The notes under the pieces: generated by a model
Told to the model about the DNA's origin: nothing
What the model saw: the letters and a program-made list of their open reading frames with translations, nothing else
The model's database searches: none
Assembly: GCA_965363545.1 (NCBI GenBank)
Contig: CBDTUD010000011.1
Location: 2,434-66,433 of the forward strand
From: an uncultured Flavobacteriaceae bacterium
GTDB taxonomy: Bacteria > Bacteroidota > Bacteroidia > Flavobacteriales > Flavobacteriaceae
Length of the DNA stretch: 64,000 bases
Reading direction: 5' to 3'
Part shown: in pieces, positions 7,877-26,288 of the stretch
Numbering within the stretch: position 1 is the stretch's first letter
How the letters are laid out: each line of letters starts with the position of its first letter
Position numbers and translations under genes: made by a program

Positions 7877-8339
7877 AGTTGTTTTTTAATTTTTGATGTG
7901 CAAAGTTAAAAAATAAAAAAGATAATATTTAGTGACCTCCAAGTTATTTATAAATTGAAGGCAAGATACGCTAAATCAGAGAATCTCACCATTTAACTTA
8001 ACTTTTAATGGCGTTTTTAAAGGCTTTAAAAGTAGCCTTTCGCTATAATAATAAAAATATTTTCTTTTTCCATCTTGGATTTAGAATTTAAATCAGAAAC
8101 TACCATTATTAAAGTTGTGTTAACGTTTTCAAAAATCTCGTATGTAACAAAAATTACGCAGTTAAGTAACAAAAGTGGAATAAAAAATGATTGAAATTAA
8201 GTATAATAATTCTAAATAATACTTATATCTCTGTTTTACAGTTACTTAAAAATTTTTGCAAGATGATTAAAATCATGTTTTATATTTTATCATACTCTTA
8301 ACTTTATGGTATAATAACAACATACTAATATCAACTATT

Positions 8340-9401
8340 ATGAAAAATTTAACTTTAAAAGGATTACTATTAATTATAGCATCCAGTTTTCTCTTAATTC
8401 AATGTACCACTGATCCGTTAGAAGGGGTAGCAGGTCAAAATGGAATTGACGGTATTGCGGGCGTTGACGGTATTGACGGTGTAGATGGCACAACAAGCTG
8501 TACATCATGTCACGCTAACAGTCATACAGACCCAATAATTGATGCTTATGCATTATCACGCCACGCCACTGGAAGTAACTGGGCTAGAGGTACCAGCGCC
8601 AGTTGTGCTCAATGCCATAATAATGAAGGATATATAGATTATCTTTCCGGAACTTTTGTTGATGACGATGGTGTACAATCTGCAAACCCTAACGGTTACG
8701 CAGTATCCAACCCTATTACATGTACTGGTTGTCATAGTAATCACAGATCATTCGATTTCGAAAATGATGGCAATGACTATGCGTTAAGAAATATTGATCC
8801 GGTATTTTTAGTTATAGATCCTACAGTTCATATTGACTTTGCAAATGATGTTGATCCATTAGGATTAAGCAATTCATGTACTACTTGTCACCAACCTAGA
8901 AATAGTTATGCAATTCCTGCAGGAACAGAAGATTATGAAATAACCAGTTCAAGATTTGGACCTCATCATAGTCCTCAAGCAACATTGGTTGAAGGTATTA
9001 TGGGAGCAAACATTGCCGGTGCAGTTGGATATCCTGGTGTTGGTTCATCAGCACACAGAGCCGGTTCATCATGTACAGCATGTCATATGGGTGAAACCAC
9101 TGACGGTACTGACGGTGGTCATAGTTGGATGGTAACATCAAACACATGTTTAGAATGTCACTCTAATGTTCCTACAGAAGTAACTGGATTTGCTGCCGAT
9201 ATGCTAACATTACACACCTTATTAGTTGAAGAAGGTGCTATTACTGAAGATGGAAGTACTGTAAGCGGAACTTATCCTGTAAAAGTTGCTCAAGCAACTT
9301 GGAACTATAAGACTTTAGAAGAGGATAAAAGTCATGGTGTACACAATCCAAATTATGCTAAGGCTCTTCTTAAAAATTCAATAGAGGCTCTACAAAATTA
9401 A
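8340..9401 (+). CDS. Hexahaem c-type cytochrome, predicted lipoprotein, with an N-terminal collagen-like Gly-X-Y linker
   Basis: Signal peptide ends in LLIQC. There are six CXXCH motifs (CTSCH, CAQCH, CTGCH, CTTCH, CTACH, CLECH). A G-X-Y x7 stretch follows the lipobox Cys directly. Confidence 0.85.
   Translation: MKNLTLKGLLLIIASSFLLIQCTTDPLEGVAGQNGIDGIAGVDGIDGVDGTTSCTSCHANSHTDPIIDAYALSRHATGSNWARGTSASCAQCHNNEGYIDYLSGTFVDDDGVQSANPNGYAVSNPITCTGCHSNHRSFDFENDGNDYALRNIDPVFLVIDPTVHIDFANDVDPLGLSNSCTTCHQPRNSYAIPAGTEDYEITSSRFGPHHSPQATLVEGIMGANIAGAVGYPGVGSSAHRAGSSCTACHMGETTDGTDGGHSWMVTSNTCLECHSNVPTEVTGFAADMLTLHTLLVEEGAITEDGSTVSGTYPVKVAQATWNYKTLEEDKSHGVHNPNYAKALLKNSIEALQN
8424..8489 (+). repeat. Imperfect 9-bp tandem repeat encoding seven Gly-X-Y triplets (GVAGQNGIDGIAGVDGIDGVDG)
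   Basis: Units such as GACGGTATT / GACGGTGTA recur in the DNA. Glycine falls at every third residue from aa 29 to 50. Confidence 0.7.
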
Positions 9402-9417
9402 TATTTGATATTTAAAT

Positions 9418-9447
9418 GTTAGGGGGTGTTGAAAAGCACCCCCTAAC
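9418..9447 (+). terminator. Perfect 11-bp GC-rich hairpin (GTTAGGGGGTG-N8-CACCCCCTAAC) 17 nt after the hexahaem cytochrome stop. It is a putative terminator, attenuator or mRNA-stabilising stem.
   Basis: I checked complementarity by hand. There is no clear downstream T-tract, so terminator function is not certain. Confidence 0.55.
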
Positions 9448-9552
9448 ATTAAAAATATTAAATCTTTAATAAATCTTTAGTTTCTTAGAATTAATACTTT
9501 GTCTTAATTCAAATGAAAATTCAAAAGGTTTTAATCAAAAAAAATATATAAA

Positions 9553-9939
9553 ATGAAAAAACTTATCAAAATAGTTCTAACTGTTTGCGCTCTTTTCATG
9601 CTGCAATCTTGTTATTACGATACGGTTTATACAGTAGAAGCACCTCCTATTGACCCGGAAGTTGATGTTCTTTATAAAACTGAAATTCAACCTATTTGGG
9701 ATAATAATTGTGTTGATTGCCATAAAGGATTTACTGCGCCAGATTTAAGACCAGAAAATTCTTATGATGACCTTCTTAACAATGGATGGCTAATCCCAGG
9801 AAACTCGGCAGGTAGTATTTTATACGAATCTGTTGCATGGACCGGTGGCGCCTCAAAAATGCCAATTGAATACAAACTAACTGAAACCGAAATTCAACTA
9901 ATTCAACTTTGGATTGATCAAGGAGCTGAGAATAATTAA
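9553..9939 (+). CDS. Small monohaem cytochrome c-domain lipoprotein (PSCyt1-like domain)
   Basis: Lipobox MLQSC and a single CVDCH motif. The pattern IQPIWDNNCVDCH ... MP ... LIQLWIDQGA matches the Planctomycete-type cytochrome c domain as I remember it. Confidence 0.75.
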   Translation: MKKLIKIVLTVCALFMLQSCYYDTVYTVEAPPIDPEVDVLYKTEIQPIWDNNCVDCHKGFTAPDLRPENSYDDLLNNGWLIPGNSAGSILYESVAWTGGASKMPIEYKLTETEIQLIQLWIDQGAENN

Positions 9940-9956
9940 CCTTTAAGAAAATAACC

Positions 9957-10838
9957 ATGAAAAAATATATCTTAATACTCTTTATTTTTTTATCAGTTCC
10001 TTTTTTAGCAATTGCGCAAGAAGATGATTCAAAAAAAGAAGAGGAAACAAAAGAAGTAATTGATAAACCAGAACGTAGAGCGTTCGAAAGTTCTTTTATT
10101 ATTGACAACCCTACTGATGTCGTTTTTGGTAAAAATGCATTGGAAGCTCAAATGGAGCACAGATTTGGCTTAATTGATTTTGATAAACCTGCCGATTTAG
10201 CGGGTATTTACGGACCAGGTGCAAATATTCGTCTTGGGATAAGTTATGCTATTCTTGACAGATTAACATTGGGTTATGGTTTTACTAAAAATCAAAGACT
10301 GCAAGATTTTAATTTGAAATATGCCATACTAAGACAAACTCGATCTGGTAAAATACCTGTGAATGTAACCTATTATGGTAATTTCGCCTATAATTCTAGT
10401 GATCAAAAAACTACACAACCTTTAATTAATTATAATCAGGACAGATTTTCTTATTTTCATCAAATCATAGTGTCCAAAAGGTTCAGCCCAAAATTCTCTA
10501 TGCAAGTCGCGCCTAGTCTTTCTCATTACAATTTAGTTGAGGAAGGAATGAATAATGACTTATTCGCAATTGCAGTTGGTGGTCGCTACAAAGTAACCCC
10601 GAATACGGCACTATTGTTTGATTATAGCCAACCTTTAAGTAGTTTCGATAAACCATATAACCCAGAAGCCGGAATAAGTTTAGGTGTTGAATTTGCAACA
10701 TCAGCGCATGCTTTTCAATTATTCATAAGCAACTATTCAGGAATTGTTCCACAACAAAACTACATGTGGAATCAAAATGATTTCTTTGGTGGTGATATTT
10801 TATTAGGGTTTAATATTACACGAGTCTATAATTTTTAA
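9957..10838 (+). CDS. Predicted outer-membrane beta-barrel protein
   Basis: Signal peptide (FLAIAQ), an acidic linker, alternating hydrophobic/polar strand-like segments, and a C-terminal ...ITRVYNF ending in an aromatic residue. It may belong to the barrel family that databases label DUF5777, which I could not verify here. Confidence 0.65.
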   Translation: MKKYILILFIFLSVPFLAIAQEDDSKKEEETKEVIDKPERRAFESSFIIDNPTDVVFGKNALEAQMEHRFGLIDFDKPADLAGIYGPGANIRLGISYAILDRLTLGYGFTKNQRLQDFNLKYAILRQTRSGKIPVNVTYYGNFAYNSSDQKTTQPLINYNQDRFSYFHQIIVSKRFSPKFSMQVAPSLSHYNLVEEGMNNDLFAIAVGGRYKVTPNTALLFDYSQPLSSFDKPYNPEAGISLGVEFATSAHAFQLFISNYSGIVPQQNYMWNQNDFFGGDILLGFNITRVYNF

Positions 10839-10943
10839 CCAATCTTAAAACTGGCTAATAAAGTTCAAAATCTATTAAAAAATAGTCTCTGATTTTGTTA
10901 GCCTTTTTTAAAAATTTTAATGTGTTAAATTTATTTAACTAGC

Positions 10944-11933
10944 ATGATTATGGAAAATGATAAAAACGAAAAAGGAGCTACAAACAGACGTAAATTCTTA
11001 AAATTAGGATTACTATCTAGTGCAACGGCTGTTGCAGGAGCTTCCTTGGTGTCAAATTTGGCAATAGAAGAAGAAACAGAAACTTCTGGAGAAAAAATGA
11101 GATTATTAACTCCAGATGGTAAAATTGTAGAGGTCGATGCCAAAAATATTAATAATTATCCAGAAGCTTTAGTCACACCTGAAGAATCCCGAAAAGGAAT
11201 TCCAAACAGAAAATTTGTGATGGTCATTGATTTGGCAAAATGTAAAAATGCTAGAAAATGTGTAGAAAGCTGTCAAAAAGCCCACAACTTAGACCATAAT
11301 GAAGAGTTTTTGAAAGTGCAATTGATACAAGATAATGAAGAAGCCTCACCGTATTGGTTACCAAAACCTTGTTTTCATTGTGATGAGCCTCCTTGCGTAA
11401 CTGTTTGCCCTACCGGAGCAACTTTTAAACGAGATGACAATATTGTGTTAGTAGATAATGATAGATGTATTGGATGCAAATTCTGTGTCACAAGTTGTCC
11501 ATATTCTGCCCGAATATTTAATTGGGGACATAAAGATAAATTTGACAATACCGATCAACCATATTCACCTGAAACAAGTGTTCCTGCTGCTGAAGGCACC
11601 GTAATGAAATGTGATTTCTGTCCGGATTTATTACGCGCAGGCAAACTACCTCATTGTGCAAAAGCTTGCCCGATGGGAGTTATTTATTTTGGCGATAAAA
11701 ATGAAGACATCGTTACCAACGGAGAAGAAACAGTTCGTTTTTCTCAACTGATTAAAGATCGCGGTGGCTATCGACATTTAGAACATTTAGGCACCAAGCC
11801 AAATGTGTATTATCTACCTGCTGTAAATCGACAATTTCCGTTAGAAAGAGGGTTAGATATTGAACCAGATATTTTGAAAAGATACGAAAACGTACCTTTT
11901 GTAAAAGACTATATCAAAAAGAATGAAATTTAA
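10944..11933 (+). CDS. Tat-exported 4Fe-4S ferredoxin-type subunit, NrfC/PsrB/HybA-like
   Basis: Twin-arginine signal NRRKFLKLG. Four Cys clusters are present, including CFHCDEPPCVTVCP, CIGCKFCVTSCP and CDFCP...CAKACP. Confidence 0.85.
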   Translation: MIMENDKNEKGATNRRKFLKLGLLSSATAVAGASLVSNLAIEEETETSGEKMRLLTPDGKIVEVDAKNINNYPEALVTPEESRKGIPNRKFVMVIDLAKCKNARKCVESCQKAHNLDHNEEFLKVQLIQDNEEASPYWLPKPCFHCDEPPCVTVCPTGATFKRDDNIVLVDNDRCIGCKFCVTSCPYSARIFNWGHKDKFDNTDQPYSPETSVPAAEGTVMKCDFCPDLLRAGKLPHCAKACPMGVIYFGDKNEDIVTNGEETVRFSQLIKDRGGYRHLEHLGTKPNVYYLPAVNRQFPLERGLDIEPDILKRYENVPFVKDYIKKNEI

Positions 11934-11951
11934 CTGCAATAGTTCTTCATC

Positions 11952-13298
11952 ATGGAAATAAATAAAAGAAAAAGAGAATTAGTTAAAGAATTTTCTCCGA
12001 TGCTTGGAAAATCAAGCACAGCATCCAAAATTTGGATTTGGTCTTTAGTCGCAATTATTTTAGTTGGATTATATGCCTTTATCCTTCAAGCAATTAAAGG
12101 ACATGAAGTTACCGGAATGCGCGACAATGTCGTTTGGGGCGTATATATTATTAATTTTATATTTTTCGTTGGTATTAGTTATTCTGGGGCATTTATCTCA
12201 GGAATTTTACATTTCTTTAAAACCCCTTGGAAAAATTCTGTTTCTAGAATTGTTGAAATCATAACCGTTTTATCATTGATTGTAGGCCCTATATTTATTC
12301 TACTTTGTATCGGAAGATTAGATAGATTACACTATCTATTTTTATACCCTAGAATTCAATCTCCAATTACTTGGGATATTATTGCTATTATGACCGACTT
12401 AGTTGGTTGCTTTATCTACTTATATTTAACATTCATACCTGACTTGGCAATTTTACGAGATAACAGTGATGAAAATACACCAAATTGGAGGAGAAAATTA
12501 TATAAATTTTTAGCAATTGGTTATCAAGACACAACCGTACAACGTGAAAAATTACACAAAATAACACGAACAATGTCTGCAATGATTATTGCAATGGCAA
12601 TTGTTGCTTACACAGTTCTTGCCTGGATTTTCAGTTTAACATTGCAACCGGGTTGGAATAGTACAATTTTTGCACCTTATTTTATTGTTGCCGGATTATA
12701 TTCAGGTGTTGGAGTCATTATTATTACCATGTTTGTCATTCGAAAATACTTGCATCTAGAACAGTACATCCGTAAAGTTCATTTTGTTGGTGCAGGTATT
12801 ATACTTTTAGTAATGTCTTTGCTGTTTGGATACTTTACGTTCAGCGAATATTTTTCTAAATGGTTTAGCCATAAAATTCATGATATTGATTTGTTAAACA
12901 CCCTTTTTAGTGGTTATTTTTGGAGATTTATTTTTGCTAATTATATTGGAGTTTTAATTCCGATAGCAATTTTATTTTTCAAAAAATTCAGAACAATTAA
13001 GGCAATCACATTTGCCGCAGTAGTAGCTGTTTTAGGTCTTTGGCTCAACCGATATTTAATCGTCATCCCTACCTTGGAAACACCATATCTGCCAATTCAA
13101 GATACACGTGCTGAGTTTATTCATTACAGTGCGACTTGGATAGAATGGTCTTTAACCTTTGCCGGAATAGCAGCTTTTTGCTTGATGTTCACACTTATTG
13201 TTAAATTTATTCCCGTAATTCCAATGTCAGGAATAATTGATCACGAAAGAGAACCAAAAATAATAAAAAGACCTGCAAAAAAAATGGTAACTGAATAA
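11952..13298 (+). CDS. NrfD/PsrC-family polytopic membrane quinol-interacting subunit
   Basis: 448 aa with ~10 hydrophobic helices. It lies 18 nt downstream of the NrfC-like gene, the canonical NrfC-NrfD order. Confidence 0.8.
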   Translation: MEINKRKRELVKEFSPMLGKSSTASKIWIWSLVAIILVGLYAFILQAIKGHEVTGMRDNVVWGVYIINFIFFVGISYSGAFISGILHFFKTPWKNSVSRIVEIITVLSLIVGPIFILLCIGRLDRLHYLFLYPRIQSPITWDIIAIMTDLVGCFIYLYLTFIPDLAILRDNSDENTPNWRRKLYKFLAIGYQDTTVQREKLHKITRTMSAMIIAMAIVAYTVLAWIFSLTLQPGWNSTIFAPYFIVAGLYSGVGVIIITMFVIRKYLHLEQYIRKVHFVGAGIILLVMSLLFGYFTFSEYFSKWFSHKIHDIDLLNTLFSGYFWRFIFANYIGVLIPIAILFFKKFRTIKAITFAAVVAVLGLWLNRYLIVIPTLETPYLPIQDTRAEFIHYSATWIEWSLTFAGIAAFCLMFTLIVKFIPVIPMSGIIDHEREPKIIKRPAKKMVTE

Positions 13299-13315
13299 TA
13301 ACAATTGAATTAGAA

Positions 13316-14218
13316 ATGATGAAAAACAACACACATAGAATAACATCCATTGCTTCTTTGATAATTGCCATATTATTTAGTGTAAATGGTATATCTCAAG
13401 ATTTAGATGCAAGTAATTACAAAATGTCATTCAAATTTAAAACTGTAAAACAAGCAGATAATTCAAGATTATTAGAAGTAAGTTTTATTGGACAAAACAA
13501 AAAGGATAGAAAAGATAAAGTTCCGGTTTTTGATGTAGAAATTAATTTTTTCAATATTTTAGATGCAGAAGAAATTTTATTAGGAAAAGCGAAAACCTCG
13601 AATGAAGGAATAGCGCAAATAACACTTCCTGAAAATCAAACGTATTTATCTGATGAAGATGGCGCAATTACAATTGCAGCACGTTTTGACGGATCGGAAG
13701 GATTAGATTCTGAAGAAGAAGAAATTAATTTTAAAAATTTATATTTAAAACTGAATTTAGCAGAAATTGACAGTGTTAAAACAGTATCAGTTAATGCTTT
13801 CACTTTGGATAGCCTAGGCAACGAATATCCCATTGAAGAAGCCGAAATAAAATTTTTTGTTGGAGGAATGTTATCTAAATTAAAAATTAATGAAGGTACT
13901 ATTAGTGAAGGCGAATATGAGTTTAAAATGCCAACGGATATACCTGGTGATACACAAGGAAACTTAACCGTTTACGCAATGATTGATGATAATGACGATT
14001 TTGGCAATTTAATTCAAAAACAAGATATTAACTGGGGAGTTTTTGATAAACACATTGAGCAAGAAGAAAATAAATTATGGTCAGAAGCCGCTCCAATATG
14101 GATGTATATCGTTCTAACCATTTTATTGGTAGGTGTTTGGGCAAATTATATGTACACTATTATATATCTATTTAAAATTAAAAAAGAAAGTAAACATATT
14201 GAAATTCACCTCGAATAA
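13316..14218 (+). CDS. Hypothetical exported protein with a C-terminal transmembrane anchor
   Basis: N-terminal signal sequence, an acidic beta-rich ectodomain and a single C-terminal TM helix (IWMYIVLTILLVGVWANYMYTIIYLF). No family recognised. Confidence 0.6.
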   Translation: MMKNNTHRITSIASLIIAILFSVNGISQDLDASNYKMSFKFKTVKQADNSRLLEVSFIGQNKKDRKDKVPVFDVEINFFNILDAEEILLGKAKTSNEGIAQITLPENQTYLSDEDGAITIAARFDGSEGLDSEEEEINFKNLYLKLNLAEIDSVKTVSVNAFTLDSLGNEYPIEEAEIKFFVGGMLSKLKINEGTISEGEYEFKMPTDIPGDTQGNLTVYAMIDDNDDFGNLIQKQDINWGVFDKHIEQEENKLWSEAAPIWMYIVLTILLVGVWANYMYTIIYLFKIKKESKHIEIHLE

Positions 14219-14297
14219 TAGCTCATAATATAAATAAAATTATTAATATTGTATTACTAATAAAAAATTAAATACCTAACAAAAACTATAACTAAAA

Positions 14298-14699
14298 ATG
14301 AAAACACTTAAATTTTTAATGATTATTTCCTTTGTAAGTTTCGGACTTTTATCATTCACGAAATTCGTTCAAGAGGAATGGAAAGTACCTGCAAAATACG
14401 AAAGCATGAAAAACCCAACGAAAGCAAATGATGAAAATATTGCTATCGGAAAAAACTTATATTCTAAGCATTGTAAATCTTGTCACGGTAAAGAAGGTTT
14501 AGGTGATGGAACAAAAGCAGATGAAGTTGATGGTGATTTAGGAGATTTTTCATCAGCAGAATTTCAATCACAATCTGATGGAGCTTTATTTTACAAAAGC
14601 TATTTCGGAAGAGATGACATGCCTAACTACGAAAAGAAAATTCCTGAACAAGAAGACATGTGGTTAGTAGTTCATTATATTAGAACCTTAAAAAAATAA
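14298..14699 (+). CDS. Class I monohaem cytochrome c
   Basis: Signal peptide, CKSCHG haem motif and a downstream DMPNY Met ligand candidate. Confidence 0.8.
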   Translation: MKTLKFLMIISFVSFGLLSFTKFVQEEWKVPAKYESMKNPTKANDENIAIGKNLYSKHCKSCHGKEGLGDGTKADEVDGDLGDFSSAEFQSQSDGALFYKSYFGRDDMPNYEKKIPEQEDMWLVVHYIRTLKK

Positions 14700-14721: not shown

Positions 14722-14753
14722 AAAAAACCAAGCGGAAAGGCTTGGTTTTTTTG
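14722..14753. terminator. Bidirectional rho-independent terminator (AACCAAGC-N6-GCTTGGTT, flanked by an A-run and a T-run)
   Basis: 8-bp perfect stem followed by TTTTTT. It sits between the convergent genes ending at 14699 (+) and 14763 (-). Confidence 0.7.
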
Positions 14754-16675: not shown

Positions 16676-18034
16676 TTAAATGGTCATCGAAAAAATTCTA
16701 GTTTCCGGTTTGTTTTCAATCAATCGCAAGTCAAAAGCCATACATATATTACGAACAAACATTCGACCACTTTCTTTCACAACTATCTTATCCTCAGAAA
16801 TTATAATCAAATCATCGGCAAATATTTCGGAAAGACGGTCAATAATTTCTGTTTTAGTTTGTGCAGATAAACCTTCCTTAAATTCCGTTTCGAGATTGCA
16901 CATGATATTTAAAATATGCTTTCGAATAACTAGGTCTTGCTTTGTTAATAAATGACCTCTAAAAATTGGTAGAATACCTTGATTTACTTTTTCTGTATAA
17001 GCTTCAATTGTTTTTTCATTTTGTGCAAATGCATACCAAGAATCACTAATAGAAGACATTCCCAAACCGATCATCAATTCGGTTTTACCAGCAGTATACC
17101 CCATAAAATTACGATGCAACTTTTTACTTTTCATTGCCTTATACAAAGTATCTGTAGGCAAAGCAAAGTGATCCATTCCTATTTCAACATAACCCGCGTC
17201 AAAAAACAATTGTTTTCCTAATTCGTATAGCTTTCGTTTTTCTTCATCTTTTGGCAGGTCTTTATCCTCAAAACCTCGCTGCCCTACTCCTTTTATCCAA
17301 GGCACATGCGCATAACTGTAATAGGCAATTCTATCTGGTTTTAAAGCAACTGTTTTCTTAATGGTTTCGCGAATACTTTCTTCATTTTGAAATGGCAATC
17401 CAAAAATTAAATCATGGCTAACCGATTCGTATCCAATTGCTCTAGAATCTTCAGTCACTCGTTGTACATTTTCAAAAGATTGCACCCTGTTAATTGCTAT
17501 TTGCACTTTTGTGTCGTAATCTTGAATTCCGAAACTATTTCTTTTATAACCCAAATCAAAAAGGGTTTGTAGCTGTTCTTTTGTAGTATGATTCGGATGT
17601 CCTTCGTAACTAAACTCAAATTCAGAAAATTTGTCCGCTCTTTTAAAAATACCCTCCGTTAATTTTTTTAAATTTTCCGAAGAAAAAAAAGTTGGTGTAC
17701 CACCACCTAAATGAATTTCTCTAATTTTCGGACGGTCACCCAATAAATCACAATATAAATCCCATTCTTTTAAAACAGTATCTAAATATGGTTCTTCGAC
17801 GCCATGTTGTTTGGTAATTTTTTTATGACAAGCACAAAAAGTGCATAGACTTTCACAAAAAGGCAAATGAATATACAAGCTAATACCCTCTTTACCATTA
17901 CTTTCTTGAAACGATTTGACTACTGAATTTTTCCAATCTTGTAGCTTAATTCCTTCTTTATCCCAAAAAGGGACGGTTGGGTAACTTGTGTACCTCGGAC
18001 CAGGAATATTATATTTTTGGATTAAGTTTGTCAT
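16676..18034 (-). CDS. hemN: Oxygen-independent coproporphyrinogen III oxidase (radical SAM)
   Basis: 452 aa, with the N-terminal YNIPGPRYTSYPT motif and the radical SAM motif CESLCTFCAC. Length fits HemN rather than the shorter HemW. Confidence 0.88.
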   Translation of the reverse strand: MTNLIQKYNIPGPRYTSYPTVPFWDKEGIKLQDWKNSVVKSFQESNGKEGISLYIHLPFCESLCTFCACHKKITKQHGVEEPYLDTVLKEWDLYCDLLGDRPKIREIHLGGGTPTFFSSENLKKLTEGIFKRADKFSEFEFSYEGHPNHTTKEQLQTLFDLGYKRNSFGIQDYDTKVQIAINRVQSFENVQRVTEDSRAIGYESVSHDLIFGLPFQNEESIRETIKKTVALKPDRIAYYSYAHVPWIKGVGQRGFEDKDLPKDEEKRKLYELGKQLFFDAGYVEIGMDHFALPTDTLYKAMKSKKLHRNFMGYTAGKTELMIGLGMSSISDSWYAFAQNEKTIEAYTEKVNQGILPIFRGHLLTKQDLVIRKHILNIMCNLETEFKEGLSAQTKTEIIDRLSEIFADDLIIISEDKIVVKESGRMFVRNICMAFDLRLIENKPETRIFSMTI

Positions 18035-18158
18035 TTTTTAGTTTGTTGTTCGTTTTATGCCAGAAATAGATAATTTCTTCTGTGTTTAGATTCCCATTTT
18101 CAAGGGAATGACAATTTTAATGAAAACTTCGAGGCTCAGCCACCTTTTCAACCATAAA

Positions 18159-19187
18159 TTAGGCGTATTCCTTTACGGCATCTACAAAAGCCTTGGCATG
18201 ATCTAACGGAATATTTGGCAAAATACCGTGCCCTAAATTTACGACATATTTATCTTTTCCAAAATCATTAATCATTTGAGTAACCATTTTTTTAATTACA
18301 TCTGGTGGAGAAAGTAATCTTGCAGGGTCAAAGTTTCCTTGTAAGGTAATTTTATTTTGAGTTAGTTTTCTCGCAATTTGTGGTTTAATTGTCCAATCAA
18401 CACCTAAAGCAGAAGCGTTAGAATTTGCCATTTCTTCTAAAGCAAACCAACATCCTTTACCAAAAGCAATCACGGGAGCATCCTTTTTAAGAGCTTCTAT
18501 AATTTGGTTGATATAGTTCCATGAAAATTCTTGGTAATCTGTTGGAGAAAGCATTCCTCCCCAAGAGTCAAAAATTTGCACAGCATCAACACCAGCTTTC
18601 ACTTTTTCTTTGAGATAAAGAATAGTAGTGTCTGTAATTTTTTGCAATAATGTATGCGCTGCAATTGGTTGTGTAAAACAAAATTCTTTGGCTTTATCAA
18701 ATGTTTTAGACCCTTGACCTTGTACACAATAGCACAAAATTGTCCAAGGAGATCCGGCAAATCCAATCAACGGAATTTCGTCATTCAGTTTTTCTTTTGT
18801 CATTTTAATCGCTTCCATGACATAGCCCAAAGTTTCTTGAATATCTGGAACAATTACATTATCTACATCTTTTTGACTACGAACCGGATTTGGTAAATAA
18901 GGACCAAAATCAGCTTTCATCTGCACGTCAATATTCATAGCTTGAGGAATTACCAGAATATCAGAAAATAAAATCGCTGCATCCATTCCGTACCTTCGAA
19001 TGGGTTGCACGGTAATTTCTGAAGCTAATTCCGGAGTTTGACAGCGTGTAAAAAAATCGTAATCTTTTTTTATGGCTAAAAATTCTGGCAAATATCTTCC
19101 TGCTTGTCGCATCATCCAAACTGGCGGACGAGCAACTATTTCACCCTTTAAAGCTCTTAAAAATAAATCGTTCTTTATATTCCCCAT
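18159..19187 (-). CDS. hemE: Uroporphyrinogen decarboxylase
   Basis: Contains [17 protein letters not shown] prefer the ATG at 19187 (MGNIKND...) over the TTG at 19193 in the ORF track. Confidence 0.9.
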
Positions 19188-19189
19188 TT

Positions 19190-20488
19190 TCAATTTTTAG
19201 TATTTTTAGCAACCGCTTTCATGGCATTTTTTATCGCATGAGACATTTTGTCAAGATCGCTATTTGACAATTCCGTAGATAAAAACCAAGACTCAAATTG
19301 CGATGGAGGTAAAAATACTCCGTCGTGAATCATTTTCCAAAAGAAGGTTTTAAATTGTACGGTATCACTTGTTTGTGCAGACTTAAAATCAACGACTTTC
19401 TCACTTGTAAAAAACGGATTTAGCATAGAACCAAATCTATTCACTTGTAAATCAACACCATTCTCTTTAGCTGCTTTTAACAATTGGTTTTCTATTTGAT
19501 CACCAATACGCTCAAATTTTTCATATGGATTTTGTTTTTTCAATTCTGTAAGAGTTGAAATTCCAGCAGCCATAGCAATCGGATTACCTGATAATGTTCC
19601 GGCTTGATACACAGGACCTAAGGGTGAAACCATTTGCATTATTTCATCTTTTGCACCATAAGCTCCAACCGGAAAACCTCCACCAATCACTTTTCCTAAG
19701 CAAGTAATATCTGCTTTTAAGCCAATTAATTCTTGTGCACCTCCGAATTTTGATCGAAATCCGGTCATCACTTCATCTGCAATAATTAAGATGTCATTTT
19801 CCTTTGCGATTTTATTCAATTCTTTTATGAATTCTTTATCTGGGATAACAACTCCCATATTACCACCAATCGGTTCAATAATTATAGCGGCAATATCCTT
19901 ATTTTTTGCAATGAGATCTTTTACACTTTCAATATTATTATATTCCGCGACAAGCGTATTCTTAACTGCATCATGTGGCACACCTTTACTCCCAGGCAAA
20001 CTCAAAGTTACCAACCCAGAGCCTGCTGCGACCAATAAGGAATCGGCATGACCGTGATAACATCCAGCAAATTTTATGATTTTATCGTTTCCCGTAAAGG
20101 CTCTTGCCAAGCGCAATGCACTGAAAACTGCCTCGGTACCTGAATTTACAAAACGAATTTTATCCATTCTCGGAAAAGCTTCACAGACAATTTTTGCCAG
20201 TTTAATTTCTCCTTTAGTAGAAGCTCCAAAACTATATCCTTTTCTAAGTGCTTTTTTGATAGCTTTTTCAACTTTCTTATTACGATGCCCTAAAATCATC
20301 GGGCCATAAGACAAAACCAAGTCGATATATTCGTTTTTATCCACATCAAAAATCTTGCTTCCTTTCCCTTTTTCGATAAATAACGGAACACCACCTACCG
20401 ATTTAAAAGCTCTAACAGGAGAATTCACAGCCCCTACTAAATGTTTTTGACCTTGTGTAAATAATGCTATGGATTTGTTTAAATTCAT
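19190..20488 (-). CDS. hemL: Glutamate-1-semialdehyde 2,1-aminomutase
   Basis: Class III aminotransferase with the typical HemL N-terminus ([20 protein letters not shown]) and a PLP lysine region (CLGKVIGGG). Confidence 0.92.
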
Positions 20489-20526
20489 ATATAAAATCTA
20501 TATTTTTTCCGATGTCTCGGAAGTCT

Positions 20527-21492
20527 CTATTTTCTGTTCAAAATCTTTGCTACCTCTTTTGCAAAATAGGTAATTATGATATCTGCTCCTGCTCTTTTCA
20601 TGGATAAGAGGCTCTCTAACATTACTTTTTCACCATCTATCCAACCTTTTGCTGCAGCAGCTTTTATCATAGCATATTCTCCGCTAACGTTATAACAAGC
20701 AATCGGTCGGTCGAAATTAGTTTTCAAATCACGAATAATATCTAAATATGCCAAAGCCGGTTTAACCATTAATATATCTGCACCTTCCATATCATCAAAA
20801 GTAGCTTCTCGCATTGCTTCATCGCGATTAGCTGAATCCATTTGATAGGTTCTTCTGTCACCAAAGGATGGCGCAGAATCTGCCGCATCACGGAACGGCC
20901 CATAAAACGCAGACGAAAATTTTACGGAATATGCCATAATTGGTAAATTGACATATCCATGAGAATCCAGTGCCTGACGAACAGTTTCGATAGTTCCATC
21001 CATCATTCCCGAAGGAGCAACCATATCTGCTCCAGCTTTCGCATGAGAGATAACTTGCTTAGCAATATTGACCAAAGTTGCATCATTATCTACGTCATTA
21101 TCATGAATAATACCGCAGTGACCATGACTAGTATATTCACAAAAACAGACATCAGTAATAACAACTAATTCTGGATATTTTTTTTTGATAAGTCGAATTG
21201 CCTTTTGAATAATACCGTTGTCATTCCATGTTTCAGAACCAATTACATCTTTTTTGGTTGGAATTCCGAAAAGTAATACTGAAGGAATATTCAAAGCAAC
21301 AACTTCATCCAATTCTTTTGAAATTCTATCTAAAGAAAATCTCTTTATTCCAGGCATGGAAACTATTTCTGTTTCAATATTCTCTCCTTCCTCAATAAAA
21401 ATTGGGTAAATTAAATCATCTACATGAAGTCGGTTTTCTCGAACCAACCTTCTCATATTTTCCGTTTTACGAAGGCGTCTTGTTCTATTCAT
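20527..21492 (-). CDS. hemB: Porphobilinogen synthase (delta-aminolevulinate dehydratase)
   Basis: RRLR...LIYPIFI N-terminus, MVKPA active-site lysine region and YNVSGEYAM. Confidence 0.92.
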
Positions 21493-21495
21493 GAT

Positions 21496-23085
21496 TTAAG
21501 CTTTATGTTCGTGAAAATAAGTATTTACTGCATTTAAAACACTTTCAACAGTTGCTATTTTTGCAACTATCACTTTATCAAAATGTTTCTTCGCTTCTTC
21601 CGCGGTTGTTCCGCCGATGCAAAATGCAATTTTTCCTAAAGGTTTATTGTCTTGCAAAAAACTTTCAATTCCGGAAGGGCTATAAAAAAGAACAGCCAGA
21701 ACCCCCTTATCTATTACCCTAGGAGTCAAAATAGTTTTATAGCATTCTACTTCGTTGACTAAAATATCGTTTTTTTCTAAAATCGTCGGTAATTCGTCTC
21801 TTCTTTTGTTACTTGTGAAAAAAGTTACTTCTTTTTCTTTTAGATTCTTTATTAAATAGTCCGCCAAACTTTCTGCCGAATTTTCTACTTGTGTAACTTT
21901 ACCTATTTTCTTTTCGATTAACCTCTTTGTTCTTCTACCAACACAATAAATATTGGTGAATCTTAATTCGACACGTGTAAAACTATTCAATAATGCTTCT
22001 ACCGCATTTTGACTTGTAATTACGACATTTTTTATAGGCTCTTTAACCAATACCGGTCGCAAACGATTGTATCGAATAGTAATAAAATCACTCATTGAAA
22101 CACCTAATTCATGCGATATCATCGTTTTTTGCGTAAGGGAAAGTGTTTTTGTAGAAAATATTTTACTTTCTTTTTCGGAAATTAACTCTTCTCGCATTAT
22201 CTTTTTACCACCTCTATCTAAGATATAGTTGGCAGCATACTCGGCTAAATCACCGCATTTCTCAACGGGTAGAGATTTGGCAAATTCAATTTTATTCTTA
22301 CCATCCGGACTAAATAAAACACCCTTAAATTTTAGTTCTCCCTCACGTATTGTTGCTAAAGCACCTATCGGAGCGGTACATCCACCCTCTAATTTATTCA
22401 AAAATTCACGTTCAACCGCTACACAAGTTGCTGTTTCTTCGTGGTTTAATTCTTTGCAAATATCGAGAATGTCTTGATTTTTTTCTAAAGCCGCAATCAT
22501 CACTGTACCCTGTGCCGGAGCAGGAATCATCCAATCTAAACGAATATGATTGTCAGGTAATAAGTTTACTCTTTTCAACCCAGCCATGGCAAAAATTGCC
22601 CCATCCCATTCATTCTCCTCTAATTTTCTCATACGAGTTTGCACATTTCCTCTTATCCCAGTAATGGAATGACTCGGAAAACGGTATAACCACTGTGCTT
22701 TTCTTCGTAAACTTCCCGTTGCAATGGTGGCTTCATTATTTGAAAAAAAATGATCATTCGACTTTAAAACTAAAACATCGTTAAAATCTCCTCTTTTTAA
22801 AACCGCAGCTTGAACAATTCCTAAGGGTAATTTGGTAGGTACATCTTTCATAGAATGCACAGCAATATCAATTTTATCTTGTAATAAAGCGATATCGAGA
22901 TTTTTGGTAAAAACACCAGTAATTCCTAATTCATATAAAGGTTTGTCGAGAACAACATCTCCAAGAGAGTCAATTTTAACTATTTCGGTTTGATACCCTA
23001 AAAACTCTATTTGTTTCGCTACGGTCGTAGCTTGCCATAGGGCTAACTCACTAGATCGAGTACCTATCCTAATAATTTTTGTCAT
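21496..23085 (-). CDS. hemC/hemD: Fused hydroxymethylbilane synthase / uroporphyrinogen-III synthase
   Basis: The N-terminal ~300 aa are HemC (IRIGTRSSELALWQA, GGCTAPIG). The C-terminal ~220 aa are HemD-like. This fusion is common in Bacteroidota. Confidence 0.88.
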   Translation of the reverse strand: MTKIIRIGTRSSELALWQATTVAKQIEFLGYQTEIVKIDSLGDVVLDKPLYELGITGVFTKNLDIALLQDKIDIAVHSMKDVPTKLPLGIVQAAVLKRGDFNDVLVLKSNDHFFSNNEATIATGSLRRKAQWLYRFPSHSITGIRGNVQTRMRKLEENEWDGAIFAMAGLKRVNLLPDNHIRLDWMIPAPAQGTVMIAALEKNQDILDICKELNHEETATCVAVEREFLNKLEGGCTAPIGALATIREGELKFKGVLFSPDGKNKIEFAKSLPVEKCGDLAEYAANYILDRGGKKIMREELISEKESKIFSTKTLSLTQKTMISHELGVSMSDFITIRYNRLRPVLVKEPIKNVVITSQNAVEALLNSFTRVELRFTNIYCVGRRTKRLIEKKIGKVTQVENSAESLADYLIKNLKEKEVTFFTSNKRRDELPTILEKNDILVNEVECYKTILTPRVIDKGVLAVLFYSPSGIESFLQDNKPLGKIAFCIGGTTAEEAKKHFDKVIVAKIATVESVLNAVNTYFHEHKA

Positions 23086-23087
23086 AT

Positions 23088-24341
23088 TTAATTTTGTAAT
23101 ACAGTCGATTTAAATACCTGCTCCATTACTTGAATACTATCTTCCGTATGGTCTTGATCTTCTTTTAAATGCATGGCAAATTTAGAAACAATCTTGTTTA
23201 TAATAAACGTAGAAATTTCTTCAGCATGATCGATATTTAAATTTTCGTATTTTTTTAAGTGTGAAGTGATTGCGTCGTTTTGAATCCCTTCTAAAGCGTG
23301 TTTTAATGAATTTATTGCAGGAATTGCTTTTCTAAAATTTAGCCATTCGTAAAATTCATTTTTATATTTTTCAATGATTGCTTCAACAATTGGTATTTGC
23401 TGTTTTCTATTTTCAAAGGTTAGTTTTGTCTTGTCCGACAGCATGTCAACATCAATAACTGTTTTATTTGGCATTAATTTAACCGCATTATCAACGTTAT
23501 TCGGAATCGATAAATCAATAATTAATTGTTTTTTATCTGAAGAAAACTGATTTGCCAAAACCGTAGGTTTTTCTGCCCCAGTGGCAATGATAATGACATC
23601 AGCATTTTGAATTTCGGATTGTAAATTTTCTTGATTTTTAACATGAACTTTTACTTCTTTCGCTAGTTCATGTGCTTTTGATTCCGTTCTGTTCATAACG
23701 GAAATCGTGCTTTTTTTCAAGTATTTAACACCACTTCTAGCTGTGCTGTCACCAATTTTTCCTAAACCGTAAATTAATACGTTTTGTTTTGGATTCCCTT
23801 TCCAATTATCGCGAACATATTGAATAGCGGCATAAGAAACCGTTGTAATTCCTGAACTTAAACTAGTAGTGTTTTTAACTTCTTTACTGGCTTGTAATGC
23901 TGTATTGTATAATCTTTCTATAAAAGCATTTACCGTATTGGCTTCTTTTGCTTGCGCAAAGGAATTTTTTAATTGCCCAACAATTTCATAATCTCCTAAA
24001 ATCTGACTATCTAATCCTGTCGCAATTCTGATAAAGTGTTCAGCAGCATCTGAATTTTTATAAACGTAAGAAACTTTGGCAAACTCTTCTACGGTTCCTC
24101 CGGAATATTTGCATAATAAAGAGATAAGCTGATATGGATGTTGTGAAAACCCAATTATTTCCGTTCTATTGCAGGTTGAAAGAATTAAAACCCCCTCCAA
24201 TTCTAATTCTTTTGCTTCCAATAGTAATTTATCCCTATCAGCTTTACTTAAACTAAATTTACTTCTTGTAGCAACATCGGCTTTTTTATAACTCAATCCG
24301 ATTACGTAAAAATTATTTTCTTTAGTATTTGTATGCTTCAT
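23088..24341 (-). CDS. hemA: Glutamyl-tRNA reductase
   Basis: Has the LSTCNRTE active-site Cys motif and an NAD(P)-binding GLGKIG motif. Confidence 0.9.
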   Translation of the reverse strand: MKHTNTKENNFYVIGLSYKKADVATRSKFSLSKADRDKLLLEAKELELEGVLILSTCNRTEIIGFSQHPYQLISLLCKYSGGTVEEFAKVSYVYKNSDAAEHFIRIATGLDSQILGDYEIVGQLKNSFAQAKEANTVNAFIERLYNTALQASKEVKNTTSLSSGITTVSYAAIQYVRDNWKGNPKQNVLIYGLGKIGDSTARSGVKYLKKSTISVMNRTESKAHELAKEVKVHVKNQENLQSEIQNADVIIIATGAEKPTVLANQFSSDKKQLIIDLSIPNNVDNAVKLMPNKTVIDVDMLSDKTKLTFENRKQQIPIVEAIIEKYKNEFYEWLNFRKAIPAINSLKHALEGIQNDAITSHLKKYENLNIDHAEEISTFIINKIVSKFAMHLKEDQDHTEDSIQVMEQVFKSTVLQN

Positions 24342-24395
24342 AATGTGACCTAAGATAAAGTTTTAGAACCGAAGTTAACAATGTAACTTATGTAA

Positions 24396-24403
24396 CAAAA
24401 GTA
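24396..24403 (-). promoter_or_regulatory. Candidate Bacteroidota -7 promoter box (TACTTTTG on the minus strand) for the hemA operon
   Basis: Matches the TAnnTTTG consensus and lies 55 bp upstream of the hemA ATG. Confidence 0.4.
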
Positions 24404-24651
24404 AGAAAGATGAGAAAAACAAAATATGATATTTATCATTTTGAAAATCTTGATTTCATTCTTTCTAAATTCAATAGAAAAGTGACACACCTTCTAGGTT
24501 TAATCTTAAAACTTTTCAAAAAAATTAACTATGACAAAATTAAGATTTCTATATACGTATAATATCGTTTGTCCAAAAAAAAGTATCGATGAAAAAAATT
24601 ATAATTTAATCATTTTTGCTGCTTTCATAAAAAGTTACGCTCTTAAAACTT

Positions 24652-24659
24652 TATCTTTG
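24652..24659 (+). promoter_or_regulatory. Candidate Bacteroidota -7 promoter box (TATCTTTG) for hemH-hemJ
   Basis: Matches the TAnnTTTG consensus. It ends 26 nt upstream of the GTG start at 24686. Confidence 0.45.
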
Positions 24660-24685
24660 CCTTTCAAAATTTAAAAAATTAAATC

Positions 24686-25720
24686 GTGCATAAAAAAGGC
24701 GTTCTTCTTGTTAATTTAGGATCTCCGGATTCCACTAAAATCAAAGACATTAAAAAATATTTAGATGAATTTTTGATGGATGAGAGAGTAATTGATATGG
24801 CGTATTGGAAACGTTATTTATTGGTTAAAGGCATTATTTTAAATACTCGTCCGAAAAAAACAGCCGCCGCATACCGAAAAATATGGTGGAAAGAAGGCTC
24901 TCCTCTCATTGTTCTTTCTGAACGTTTTTTCAAAAAAGTACAAGAAAAAGTTGATCTTCCTATAACACTTGCAATGCGATACGGTTCGATGTCGATTGAA
25001 AAAGGTTTAAAAGAATTGGCAGATAAAGGTGTTGAAGATGTTTTGTTAATTCCTCTATATCCTCACTATGCCATGTCGTCTTTTGAAACAGTAGAAGTAA
25101 AAGCAATAGAAATTCAAAAACAGTTATTTTCAAAAATGTCGATTGAAACGTTTCCGGTTTTTTACAATAAACCAGACTATATTTCAGCAATGACAAACAA
25201 TATAAAAAAGGAATTGGGTAATGAAAAATACGATTATATATTGTTCTCTTATCACGGTATTCCTGAGCGCCATATTTATAAAAGTGACACCACAAAAAAC
25301 CATTGTAAATTAGATGGCAGTTGTTGTGATTTGCCAAGCAAAGCACATGAAACTTGTTATCGACACCAATGTTTTGAAACCACGAAAGAAATTGCAAAGT
25401 CTTTACATTTAAAAGAAGGTACTTGGGGCAATTCTTTTCAATCTAGATTATTACGCGACCCTTGGCTAAAACCTTATACCGATTTTGAATTTGAAAAATT
25501 AGCACAAAACGGTGTTGAAAATTTAATTGTTATCACACCTTCTTTTGTTACCGATTGCTTGGAAACTTTAGAAGAAATTGCCATGGAAGGCAAACACCAA
25601 TTTTTAGAGGCAGGAGGAAAAAATTACAAACATATACCATGTTTAAACGATAATCAAGAATGGGTAAATACGGTGTGTAATTGGATTTCCGATTGGGAAA
25701 AGAAATCGAATAACAGATAG
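24686..25720 (+). CDS. hemH: Ferrochelatase
   Basis: Contains GVLLVNLGSPDS, YPHYAMSS and SYHGIPERH. GTG start. Confidence 0.9.
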   Translation: MHKKGVLLVNLGSPDSTKIKDIKKYLDEFLMDERVIDMAYWKRYLLVKGIILNTRPKKTAAAYRKIWWKEGSPLIVLSERFFKKVQEKVDLPITLAMRYGSMSIEKGLKELADKGVEDVLLIPLYPHYAMSSFETVEVKAIEIQKQLFSKMSIETFPVFYNKPDYISAMTNNIKKELGNEKYDYILFSYHGIPERHIYKSDTTKNHCKLDGSCCDLPSKAHETCYRHQCFETTKEIAKSLHLKEGTWGNSFQSRLLRDPWLKPYTDFEFEKLAQNGVENLIVITPSFVTDCLETLEEIAMEGKHQFLEAGGKNYKHIPCLNDNQEWVNTVCNWISDWEKKSNNR

Positions 25721-25727
25721 CCTTAAC

Positions 25728-26288
25728 ATGGAATATCTCTATATAAAATCATTGCATATAATTTTTGTAACCACTTGGTTCGCAGGCCTATTCTATATTA
25801 TTCGACTATTCATCTACTATAAAGAAGCCGAAGAAAAATCAGAAACTGAAAAAGCAATTTTGCTCCCACAATACGAATTAATGATTAAGCGACTTTGGTA
25901 TATCATTACCTGGCCATCTGCAATTTTAGCAACGATTTTTGCAATTTGGCTGCTCGTTCTGCAACCTTTTTGGCTAAAGGAAACATGGATGCTTTTAAAA
26001 TTAGGTTTCGTTGTTTTGCTTTACGGGTATCACTGGAGTTGTCAAATCATGTACAATCAAATTACAAAAGGAAATTTAAAATATTCTTCTTTTGCTTTGC
26101 GAATTTGGAACGAAGTTGCAACTATCATCCTCTTCGCCTGCGTTTTTCTTGTTGTTTTAAAAAGTACTTTAGGTTGGATTTTTGGCGTAGTTGGTATCGT
26201 TGGCGTCTCTGTTTTACTCATGTTGGGTATTAAATTATATAAAAAGATTCGCGCTAAAAAAAGCTGGGATCGAAATGACACCATATAA
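25728..26288 (+). CDS. hemJ: Protoporphyrinogen IX oxidase, HemJ type (CopD-like membrane protein)
   Basis: 186 aa four/five-helix membrane protein with the N-terminal YIKSLHIIFVTTWFAGLFY pattern. It lies directly downstream of hemH. Confidence 0.75.
   Translation: MEYLYIKSLHIIFVTTWFAGLFYIIRLFIYYKEAEEKSETEKAILLPQYELMIKRLWYIITWPSAILATIFAIWLLVLQPFWLKETWMLLKLGFVVLLYGYHWSCQIMYNQITKGNLKYSSFALRIWNEVATIILFACVFLVVLKSTLGWIFGVVGIVGVSVLLMLGIKLYKKIRAKKSWDRNDTI

Follow-up and report, generated by a model that had tools for sequence, protein, structure and literature searches.

The stretch of DNA analysed here, referred to as the window, consists of 64,000 nucleotides (nt) of contig CBDTUD010000011.1 (GenBank assembly GCA_965363545.1, positions 2,434 to 66,433) from an uncultured Flavobacteriaceae bacterium, and its subject is a cluster of seven genes, named g1-g7 in the order of transcription, all on the + strand. 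An earlier note on this DNA, made from the letters and a list of open reading frames (ORFs), had described the cluster as a quinol-coupled electron conduit with multihaem cytochromes, an outer-membrane barrel and no recognisable catalytic subunit. The seven ORFs were found at exactly the positions given there, and the motifs listed for their products (the CXXCH counts, the twin-arginine signal, the cysteine groups and the C-terminal phenylalanine) were all recovered. The genes are:

8340..9401, + strand: g1, hexahaem c-type cytochrome lipoprotein by CXXCH motifs and lipobox, placed in the NrfA/OcwA superfamily by profile and predicted fold
9553..9939, + strand: g2, monohaem c-type cytochrome lipoprotein (CVDCH), by motif and lipobox
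9957..10838, + strand: g3, DUF5777 outer-membrane beta-barrel, by Pfam and AlphaFold
10944..11933, + strand: g4, Tat-exported (twin-arginine) protein with four iron-sulfur (Fe-S) clusters, NrfC/ActB2 type, by motifs and PDB matches
11952..13298, + strand: g5, ActC-type predicted quinone-interacting membrane subunit of the NrfD family, by Pfam and PDB matches
13316..14218, + strand: g6, bitopic protein without a family match, by signal peptide and C-terminal helix
14298..14699, + strand: g7, class I monohaem cytochrome c, by Pfam

The gaps between the genes from g1 to g7 are 151, 17, 105, 18, 17 and 79 nt. Relatives of g1 were sought in one genome per species and found in 402 genomes, and the neighbourhood counts refer to the best 80 loci out of these, all of them from Flavobacteriaceae (Lutibacter, Robiginitalea, Muriicola, Eudoraea, Yeosuana, Seonamhaeicola, Gaetbulibacter, Aestuariivivens, Ulvibacterium and other genera). 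In the 80 loci g1 is followed on the same strand by g2 in 77 cases, g3 in 76, g4 in 73, g5 in 70, g6 in 60 and g7 in 65, and the missing followers are mostly accounted for by contig ends. The genes flanking the cluster in the window recur in at most 13 of the 80 loci and an all-versus-all clustering of the ORFs revealed hemA as the sole other frequent neighbour. The seven-gene set is thus real and strongly co-conserved in marine Flavobacteriaceae, g2-g7 trailing g1 in 60 to 77 of the loci, a point that the earlier note had left open to refutation. When the arrangements are compared the cluster is seen to be composed of three units: g1 alone, the pair g2-g3 and the module g4-g7. The synteny of the flanks brings the window nearest to Lutibacter.

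The product of g1 is 353 amino acids (aa) long with six CXXCH motifs and a signal peptide ending at the lipobox cysteine, Cys22, which is kept in 98% of the family members. Homologues number 883 in a 90%-identity protein collection, the matches listed all being named hypothetical, and clustering at 50% identity divides the family into 356 clusters at E<=1e-30, or 1354 at the looser limit of E<=1e-10. The CXXCK motif is found neither in g1 nor in 147 representatives of the family. When a profile built from 20 homologues was compared with three NrfA structures, the C-terminal half (query 239-354) matched with E ~1e-7 over a region spanning the last two haem motifs, their distal histidines and the helix motif W-x-Y...S-x-G-x-H-N-P, and the same profile matched OcwA (6I5B) with E 1.4e-4. 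The AlphaFold model of g1 is poor, with a predicted local distance difference test score (pLDDT) of 60.7, and the only significant matches to it in Foldseek were two OcwA chains (E 7e-4, template modelling score 0.40). By profile and, more moderately, by model g1 belongs to the NrfA/OcwA cytochrome superfamily at the level of the fold.

OcwA of Thermincola potens, the best fold match, is a cell-surface terminal reductase for extracellular electron transfer with an NrfA-like fold, in which two open haems each lie below a His-His pair and which reduces nitrite and hydroxylamine at very slow turnover (PMC6703420). Its C-terminal helices and the way its last two haems are spaced recur in g1. The superfamily also takes in MccA and octahaem cytochromes, and NrfA and MccA are moreover served by NrfC/NrfD-type modules (PMC8076601), as g1 apparently is. 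On the other hand g1 has six haems and not nine or five, it lacks CXXCK, the His-His pocket is not conserved and it is a lipoprotein on a Gly-X-Y tether in a Gram-negative host.

Among 133 diverse full-length members of the g1 family exactly six histidines outside the haem motifs are conserved to at least 98% (His75, 135, 209, 239, 261 and 335), and Met250 is conserved in 89%. Since the candidate ligands number six or seven and the haems six, an open catalytic site in g1 is not needed, which argues that all six haems are six-coordinate, possibly bis-His, and g1 is read as a wire or a terminal electron carrier rather than as a small-molecule enzyme. The absence of a recognisable catalytic subunit, as claimed before, therefore needs qualification, since the superfamily holds catalytic and terminal-reductase cytochromes while the count of histidines argues for the lack of an open site in this member. 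In the GPHH pair of the family the second histidine is kept in only 60% and replaced by tyrosine in 29%; an OcwA-like His-His active-site pocket was rejected as a sign of catalysis by g1 on account of this conservation and of the six other ligand candidates.

After the lipidated cysteine of g1 follows a run of eight uninterrupted Gly-X-Y triplets (residues 29-52, window 8424-8495), and such a run is found in 132 of the 133 diverse members with 3-16 triplets, eight being the commonest number. A collagen-like tether of this kind would span ~7 nm if extended, and a trimeric stalk is possible. The Bacteroidota signal for surface export consists of two acidic residues soon after the lipidated cysteine (PMC5080379), and because it is present in just 4 of 77 g1 orthologues g1 probably faces the periplasm.

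The second unit starts with g2, a protein of 128 aa with one CXXCH and a lipobox cysteine at position 20, for which Pfam and NCBIfam gave weak family matches only. [quoted passage not shown] A conserved Met-Pro in the C-terminal part suggests that its haem is His/Met-ligated. Its partner g3 carries a signal peptide and ends in YNF, and it matches the Pfam domain DUF5777 (PF19089, membrane-bound beta-barrel domain) over the full length of the model with E 3.6e-75 and 252.8 bits against a cut-off of 23.1. AlphaFold (pLDDT 79.5, predicted template modelling score 0.77) builds g3 with 12 long strands, and a Foldseek search with this model returned 166 PDB chains at E<=1e-3, topped by OmpG, FapF, NanC, FadL and autotransporter barrels, the best-matching of which have 12-14 strands. 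The barrel proposed earlier for 9957-10838 was put at the mercy of structure prediction and is what the prediction gives, so that g3 can with confidence be modelled as a true outer-membrane barrel. At the modelled size it leaves far too little room for a multihaem protein to be enclosed as MtrA is in MtrB. The two genes are tightly coupled: g2 adjoins g3 in 77 of the 80 loci, with a constant spacing of 17-18 nt or an overlap, and in one locus (L028) they are duplicated as a pair. Among the 240 homologues listed for DUF5777 there is no fusion to a cytochrome.

The surface-export signal is present in 39 of 73 orthologues of g2. It is also found in an accessory protein, a lipoprotein of ~415 aa with an EB_dh domain (ethylbenzene dehydrogenase gamma-like, haem b-binding; E 4.6e-29), which starts with CTHDD and carries the signal in seven out of seven cases. 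Both g2 and this EB_dh lipoprotein may accordingly reach the cell surface, judging from their N-termini. The earlier suggestion that the system reaches the outer membrane or the cell surface thus stands for an outer-membrane component, while the surface exposure of g1 is unsupported by its export signal. The extra lipoprotein lies between g1 and g2 in seven loci (L012 11705-12955; also L013, L015, L072, L079 and L008). In g3 the number of invariant polar residues is unusually high, including His68, His190 and His251, and the N-terminal residues 39-55 are conserved as well; these residues could line a specific lumen or make up a plug, or they could bind g2, another partner or a metal.

The third unit, g4-g7, contains the predicted link to the quinone pool. 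The 329-aa product of g4 has the twin-arginine signal RRKFLK and four cysteine groups, the first of which is CxxAxxCxxxC, with three cysteines and the second one absent, as is also the case in the second type of the module described below. From this three-cysteine group one [3Fe-4S] and three [4Fe-4S] clusters are predicted, the same set as is held by ActB (PMC8076601). The PDB search with g4 gave PsrB (E 2.3e-24), ArrB and, for the structures 6BTM and 6F0K, the C-terminal Fe-S portion of ActB, the alignments covering ActB residues 772-945 or 796-1028. The only domains that g4 matches are of ferredoxin type. The membrane protein g5, with ten hydrophobic segments, matched Pfam NrfD (E 8.7e-33) and, over residues 26-428, ActC of Rhodothermus marinus (6F0K_C, E 4.6e-49), with further ActC matches from Roseiflexus, Chloroflexus and Flavobacterium johnsoniae (6BTM_C, 6.6e-42); PsrC gave no match to g5 in the PDB search. 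All NCBIfam models for related systems scored below their cut-offs: DsrO 170.2 bits against 200, DsrP 83.2 against 350, QrcC 118 against 400, QrcD 47.8 against 570, NrfC 117.5 against 377.6 and NrfD 27.1 against 347.6. Of the residues of the ActC quinol site and its gate (PMC8076601), g5 retains Asp169 and the gate Arg395 while His139 is replaced by Cys119 and Asp253 by Ile226.

The remaining two products of the module are g6, in which a signal peptide and a ~230-aa periplasmic domain are followed by a single C-terminal helix, and g7, which has an N-terminal hydrophobic segment and matched Pfam Cytochrom_C (3.8e-09) and Cytochrome_CBB3 (3.7e-08). Searches with g6 in Pfam, NCBIfam and the PDB, both as a single sequence and as a profile of 20 sequences, gave nothing significant, and it always accompanies g4, g5 and g7, also in duplicated modules. 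By identity to the g5 of the window the module exists in two paralogous types, A (73-83%) and B (34-40%), and its arrangements are B in 31 loci, A in 15 (including the window), BA in 11, BB in eight and AB in two. By these sequence relations the pair that the earlier note had called NrfCD-type is part of a predicted quinone-coupled module, not of a generic NrfCD kind but specifically an ActC-type relative of ACIII, and g4-g7 is a trimmed ACIII-like quinol module with two core subunits. An example of tandem modules is found in L032 (12782-16335 and 16565-20219). Just upstream of the type-B NrfC genes an ORF of ~100 aa with a twin-arginine-like motif occurs in 22 loci (L002 12361-12681); it resembles the N-terminal part of the NrfC protein of the window and may represent a signal region that has been split off, a frameshift or a protein in its own right.

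Outside Flavobacteriaceae the surroundings of the hexahaem gene change in an informative way. Three Prolixibacteraceae, Mangrovibacterium marinum, Sunxiuqinia elliptica and Maribellus maritimus, share the gene order Crp/Fnr regulator, hexahaem protein, monohaem protein, DUF5777, multihaem protein, cytochrome b, a 500-aa NapC/NirT protein and a ResB-CcsA fusion for cytochrome c maturation. Here the hexahaem protein is 33% identical to g1, the monohaem protein 31% to g2 (in Mangrovibacterium) and the DUF5777 protein 34% to g3, and the place of g4-g7 is taken by the multihaem protein, cytochrome b and NapC/NirT, which are other known kinds of quinol dehydrogenase. The trio g1-g2-g3 is hence the core of the system and the quinol module is swappable, and nothing argues more strongly for a link between the quinone pool and the outer membrane than this exchange of one quinol dehydrogenase for another while the trio stays the same.

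More distant homologues of g1 keep similar company. In L083 the homologue adjoins a molybdopterin/Fe-S/NrfD set and further multihaem proteins, and in L081 (Fibrobacterales) it lies beside a fusion of a multihaem protein and cytochrome b, NapC, hemA and ResB/CcsA. In two lineages with a high content of guanine and cytosine (L082 7266-12116 and L084 1445-4824) the hexahaem homologue stands beside a DUF1207 protein and not DUF5777, the C-terminus of the DUF1207 protein looking barrel-like in both; L084 also has a gene for a 797-aa fusion protein bearing 13 CXXCH motifs. The homologue in L082 directly follows feoA-feoB. A link to iron uptake was rejected, this neighbour not recurring in the Flavobacteriaceae loci.

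When analysing the non-coding regions of the cluster three features appeared:

8264..8275, strand not assigned: TGAT-N4-ATCA palindrome of Crp/Fnr type, 76 nt upstream of the start codon of g1
9415..9450, + strand: hairpin with a 16-bp perfect stem and a GAAA loop, just past the stop codon of g1
14722..14751, + strand: intrinsic terminator with a 12-pair stem, a 6-nt loop and a T run

The exact core TGAT-N4-ATCA was found 68-116 nt upstream of g1 in 30 of 75 loci while ~2 were expected from the background of 0.079 per kb, an enrichment of ~15-fold at a fixed position, and with two mismatches or fewer to TTGAT-N4-ATCAA the box is found in 38 of 77 loci against ~14% of random windows. In the three Prolixibacteraceae loci a box lies between the Crp/Fnr gene and the hexahaem gene, and in two of them it is a perfect TTGAT-N4-ATCAA. 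The position and sequence of the box fit a predicted control of Fnr type, hence induction at low oxygen. A scan for sigma-70 promoters gave 40 sites against 33.8 expected and was uninformative, promoters of Bacteroidota differing from that consensus.

Folding of the region 9395-9560, which contains the hairpin after g1, gave -44.3 kcal/mol (z = -7.6), and among 66 related loci the g1-g2 gap contains a stem of at least eight uninterrupted pairs in 56. Having no clean T run, the hairpin was not called in the scan for terminators. It suggests an attenuator or an mRNA stabiliser that would raise g1 over the downstream products, and it probably sets the ratio of the hexahaem protein to these. Transcription of the cluster as a single unit is made doubtful by so strong and conserved a hairpin. 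The terminator proposed for the end of the cluster is present as described, with its 12-pair stem and T run.

Haem biosynthesis genes lie nearby:

16676..26288, strand not assigned as a whole: haem biosynthesis locus, every gene identified by Pfam

The locus had been pointed out before and proved real gene by gene; it consists of hemN-hemE-hemL-hemB-hemCD-hemA on the - strand (16676-24341) and the divergent hemH-hemJ (24686-26288). In 36 of the 80 related loci the cluster is immediately followed by hemA in the same orientation, and haem biosynthesis genes are joined to the cluster in several arrangements. A second exact TGAT-N4-ATCA box is situated at 24427-24438 in the divergent gap between hemA and hemH, 86 nt upstream of hemA. 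It hints at a co-regulation of haem synthesis with the cytochrome cluster, the window holding three such boxes against ~5 expected by chance and the argument for the hem box being its position alone. In the same locus hemC and hemD are fused into one gene (window 21496-23085) for a protein of 529 aa with porphobilinogen deaminase and uroporphyrinogen-III synthase domains. Elsewhere in the window 28039-28629 encodes a 2-oxoacid:ferredoxin oxidoreductase gamma subunit, the enzyme being of a kind that goes with low oxygen, and 57897-58526 encodes GldL of gliding and type IX secretion, the presence of which is consistent with a Bacteroidota host.

To place the cluster among known systems its parts were compared with those of characterised complexes. 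The closest relative of the quinol module is ACIII (Rhodothermus marinus 6F0K, Flavobacterium johnsoniae 6BTM, Roseiflexus 6LOD), to which g5 shows a full-length ActC likeness with 10 helices and g4 a likeness to the Fe-S half of ActB; monohaem and multihaem cytochromes are partners in both systems, and in ACIII the quinol site is on the periplasmic side (PMC8076601). In contrast to ACIII the cluster lacks a molybdopterin-like ActB1 domain and an ActF, the second NrfD-like subunit, and neither ActA nor ActD can be recognised in it, no ActA chain being among the PDB matches of g1, which has six haems where ActA is pentahaem. It adds an outer-membrane barrel, and the positions of His139 and Asp253 are replaced in g5. 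The exclusions made in the earlier note all hold: with a single NrfD-family ORF and no molybdopterin ORF the cluster is not a standard ACIII, without CXXCK it is not Nrf, without NosZ it is not Nos and without a molybdenum subunit it is not Psr or Ttr. Subunits of DsrMKJ and QrcAB were likewise not found among the ORFs of the cluster.

The overall logic of MtrCAB and the Geobacter Pcc conduits, to which the cluster had also been compared, is retained, in that a quinol dehydrogenase, periplasmic multihaem carriers, an outer-membrane barrel and lipoprotein cytochromes occur together, and a borderline Pfam match to MtrC/MtrF domain II/IV was found in the cluster (31.6 bits against a cut-off of 30). 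The comparison fails on the barrel, g3 having 12 modelled strands against 20-26 in these systems (26 in MtrB), and also in that there is no decahaem MtrA-like insert and the predicted fold of g1 is NrfA/OcwA-like and not MtrC-like. Cyc2 of iron oxidisers combines one haem with one small barrel, as g2-g3 does, but here these are two tightly coupled genes and not a fusion, no sequence similarity was detectable with Pfam and NCBIfam, and the proposed direction of the electrons is the opposite. In Melioribacter roseus and MBNT15, which belong to other phyla and were compared by description only, Fe-S/NrfD proteins together with multihaem cytochromes and without a molybdenum subunit have been proposed, from genomes only, to be quinol oxidases feeding an outer-membrane Fe(III) reductase (PMC9386147). 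That NrfC/NrfD-type module with multihaem cytochromes resembles the one described here, and in the text consulted there is no mention of DUF5777, of a hexahaem protein on a collagen-like tether or of a box of Fnr type (PMC9386147).

Taken together the ActC match of g5 and the barrel of g3 support the central proposal of the earlier note, namely that the multihaem proteins are coupled to quinone and that part of the system lies in the outer membrane. The function proposed here goes further, and for the most likely one, a respiratory chain that exports electrons from menaquinol under oxygen limitation, the chances, weighed on sequences and models, are about even. In such a chain g5 would oxidise menaquinol on the periplasmic side of the inner membrane and the electrons would go through the Fe-S clusters of the ActB2-type g4 to the cytochrome c g7, with g6 as a structural subunit, so that g4-g7 would act as a trimmed ACIII-like quinol:cytochrome c oxidoreductase. 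The tethered g1 with its six putative bis-His haems would then serve as a wire across the periplasm that takes the electrons onward, and g2, docked to the small g3 barrel, would form an outer-membrane unit that passes them to an acceptor located at this membrane or further out. A fairly high-potential acceptor is favoured, such as Mn(IV/III) or chelated Fe(III), since the chain includes two monohaem cytochromes with predicted His/Met ligation and, optionally, the haem b of the EB_dh protein.

Several points weigh against this export of electrons. Known metal-respiring conduits use low-potential bis-His haems, His/Met monohaem cytochromes being unusual there, and most of the hosts are described as aerobes. 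The outer membrane is ~3-4 nm thick and g2 offers a single haem, which leaves the crossing by electrons unexplained, and g1 as a rule has no surface-export signal, so that no haem is thereby placed on the cell surface. Two of the three residues of the ActC quinol site are changed in g5. The OcwA fold match of g1 was obtained with a low-confidence model and is moderate evidence. The box upstream of g1 is exact in only 30 of the 75 loci, and among ten small ORFs of the window (151-231 aa) that were scanned none encodes a Crp/Fnr regulator.

The same parts can be assembled in other ways. If the flow were inward, g2-g3 would be a split Cyc2 that oxidises Fe(II) or another external donor, with g1 and g7 leading to a terminal oxidase and the ActBC-like module running in reverse to reduce menaquinone. 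With its monohaem cytochrome and closely linked small barrel the pair is made of the same parts as Cyc2, the predicted His/Met cytochromes and the optional EB_dh haem b suit a high-potential chain, and reverse flow through ACIII has been proposed in iron oxidisers. This direction is nevertheless judged quite unlikely, since neither Pfam nor NCBIfam revealed similarity to any Cyc2-type model and since in heterotrophic hosts with low-potential menaquinone an uphill reduction of quinone has no obvious use; the obligate pairing with quinol-dehydrogenase modules (CymA/CbcL-like in Prolixibacteraceae) is typical of outward pathways, and an Fnr-type box suits anaerobic respiration better than oxygen-dependent iron oxidation. 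Iron also enters a further alternative, in which Fe(III) is reduced at the outer membrane for the uptake of Fe(II). The location of feoA-feoB directly before the homologue in L082 speaks for such an assimilatory ferric reductase, but this case is single, the 80 Flavobacteriaceae loci show no co-conservation of an iron-uptake gene, the box is Fnr-like and not Fur-like, and a seven-gene quinol-linked chain would be elaborate for iron assimilation, which makes it a very remote prospect.

Whether g1 itself could be the end of the chain depends on how its relation to NrfA and OcwA is read. As a periplasmic reductase of nitrite, hydroxylamine, a sulfur oxyanion or peroxide, supplied with electrons by the quinol module as in NrfABCD or MccACD and with g3 as the channel for the substrate, it would be in accordance with the profile match to NrfA (E 1e-7, including the W-x-Y...S-x-G-x-H-N-P motif), with the lack of a surface-export signal and with the substrate channels OmpG, NanC and FadL among the fold matches of g3; OcwA reduces nitrite and hydroxylamine (PMC6703420) and NrfA and MccA use NrfC/NrfD partners (PMC8076601). 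The alignment of g1 with NrfA is however restricted to the C-terminal third, CXXCK is absent, six extra histidines are there for six haems, the second histidine of the His-His pair is only 60% conserved and the turnover of small molecules by OcwA is very slow (PMC6703420), and the enzymatic role is for these reasons considered unlikely. A last possibility separates the two halves of the cluster, g4-g7 being a second, low-oxygen isoform of ACIII that feeds a cbb3 or caa3 oxidase and g1-g3 having a task of their own, for example with the barrel as a dedicated translocon or anchor for the two lipoproteins. The hairpin between g1 and the remaining genes, the ActC type of g5, the likeness of g7 to cytochromes c associated with cbb3 oxidases, and the FapF secretion channel and autotransporters among the matches of g3 would all agree with such a division. 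The two halves are, though, linked in ~70 of the 80 loci, and the trio of the Prolixibacteraceae likewise has a quinol module beside it, though one of another kind, which argues that the link is functional; the division is regarded as improbable.

For the export of electrons from menaquinol the logic is familiar and the parts are new, namely the DUF5777 barrel, the collagen-tethered hexahaem protein of NrfA/OcwA type and the ACIII relative with two core subunits. A literature search found no paper on the cluster, on DUF5777/PF19089 or on multihaem cytochromes of Lutibacter, and broader results were analogous proposals in other phyla. A more specific picture, put forward tentatively and rather doubtful as a whole, is that of a conduit of Bacteroidota's own, unrelated to Mtr and Pcc, in which a collagen-stalked and possibly trimeric g1 works with a monohaem protein in a DUF5777 barrel and with interchangeable quinol dehydrogenases. 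On that picture marine Flavobacteriaceae and Prolixibacteraceae regarded as aerobes, species by the hundred, could respire extracellular metal oxides or exchange electrons with minerals once oxygen is exhausted. Cultured carriers exist in Lutibacter, Seonamhaeicola, Yeosuana, Gaetbulibacter and Mangrovibacterium, and genetic modification of the ACIII of Flavobacterium johnsoniae has been reported.

Should the proposed function be true, it would be the first for DUF5777 and for collagen-tethered hexahaem cytochromes, and it would mean that ACIII can exist trimmed to two core subunits. Much of the organic matter in coastal sediments is degraded by Flavobacteriaceae, one of the main groups in this process and one that is as a rule taken to be aerobic. 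A chain of this kind, apparently under the control of an Fnr-type site, would sustain their respiration in the zone of fluctuating oxic and anoxic conditions and change the taxa to which the cycling of carbon, manganese and iron is assigned.

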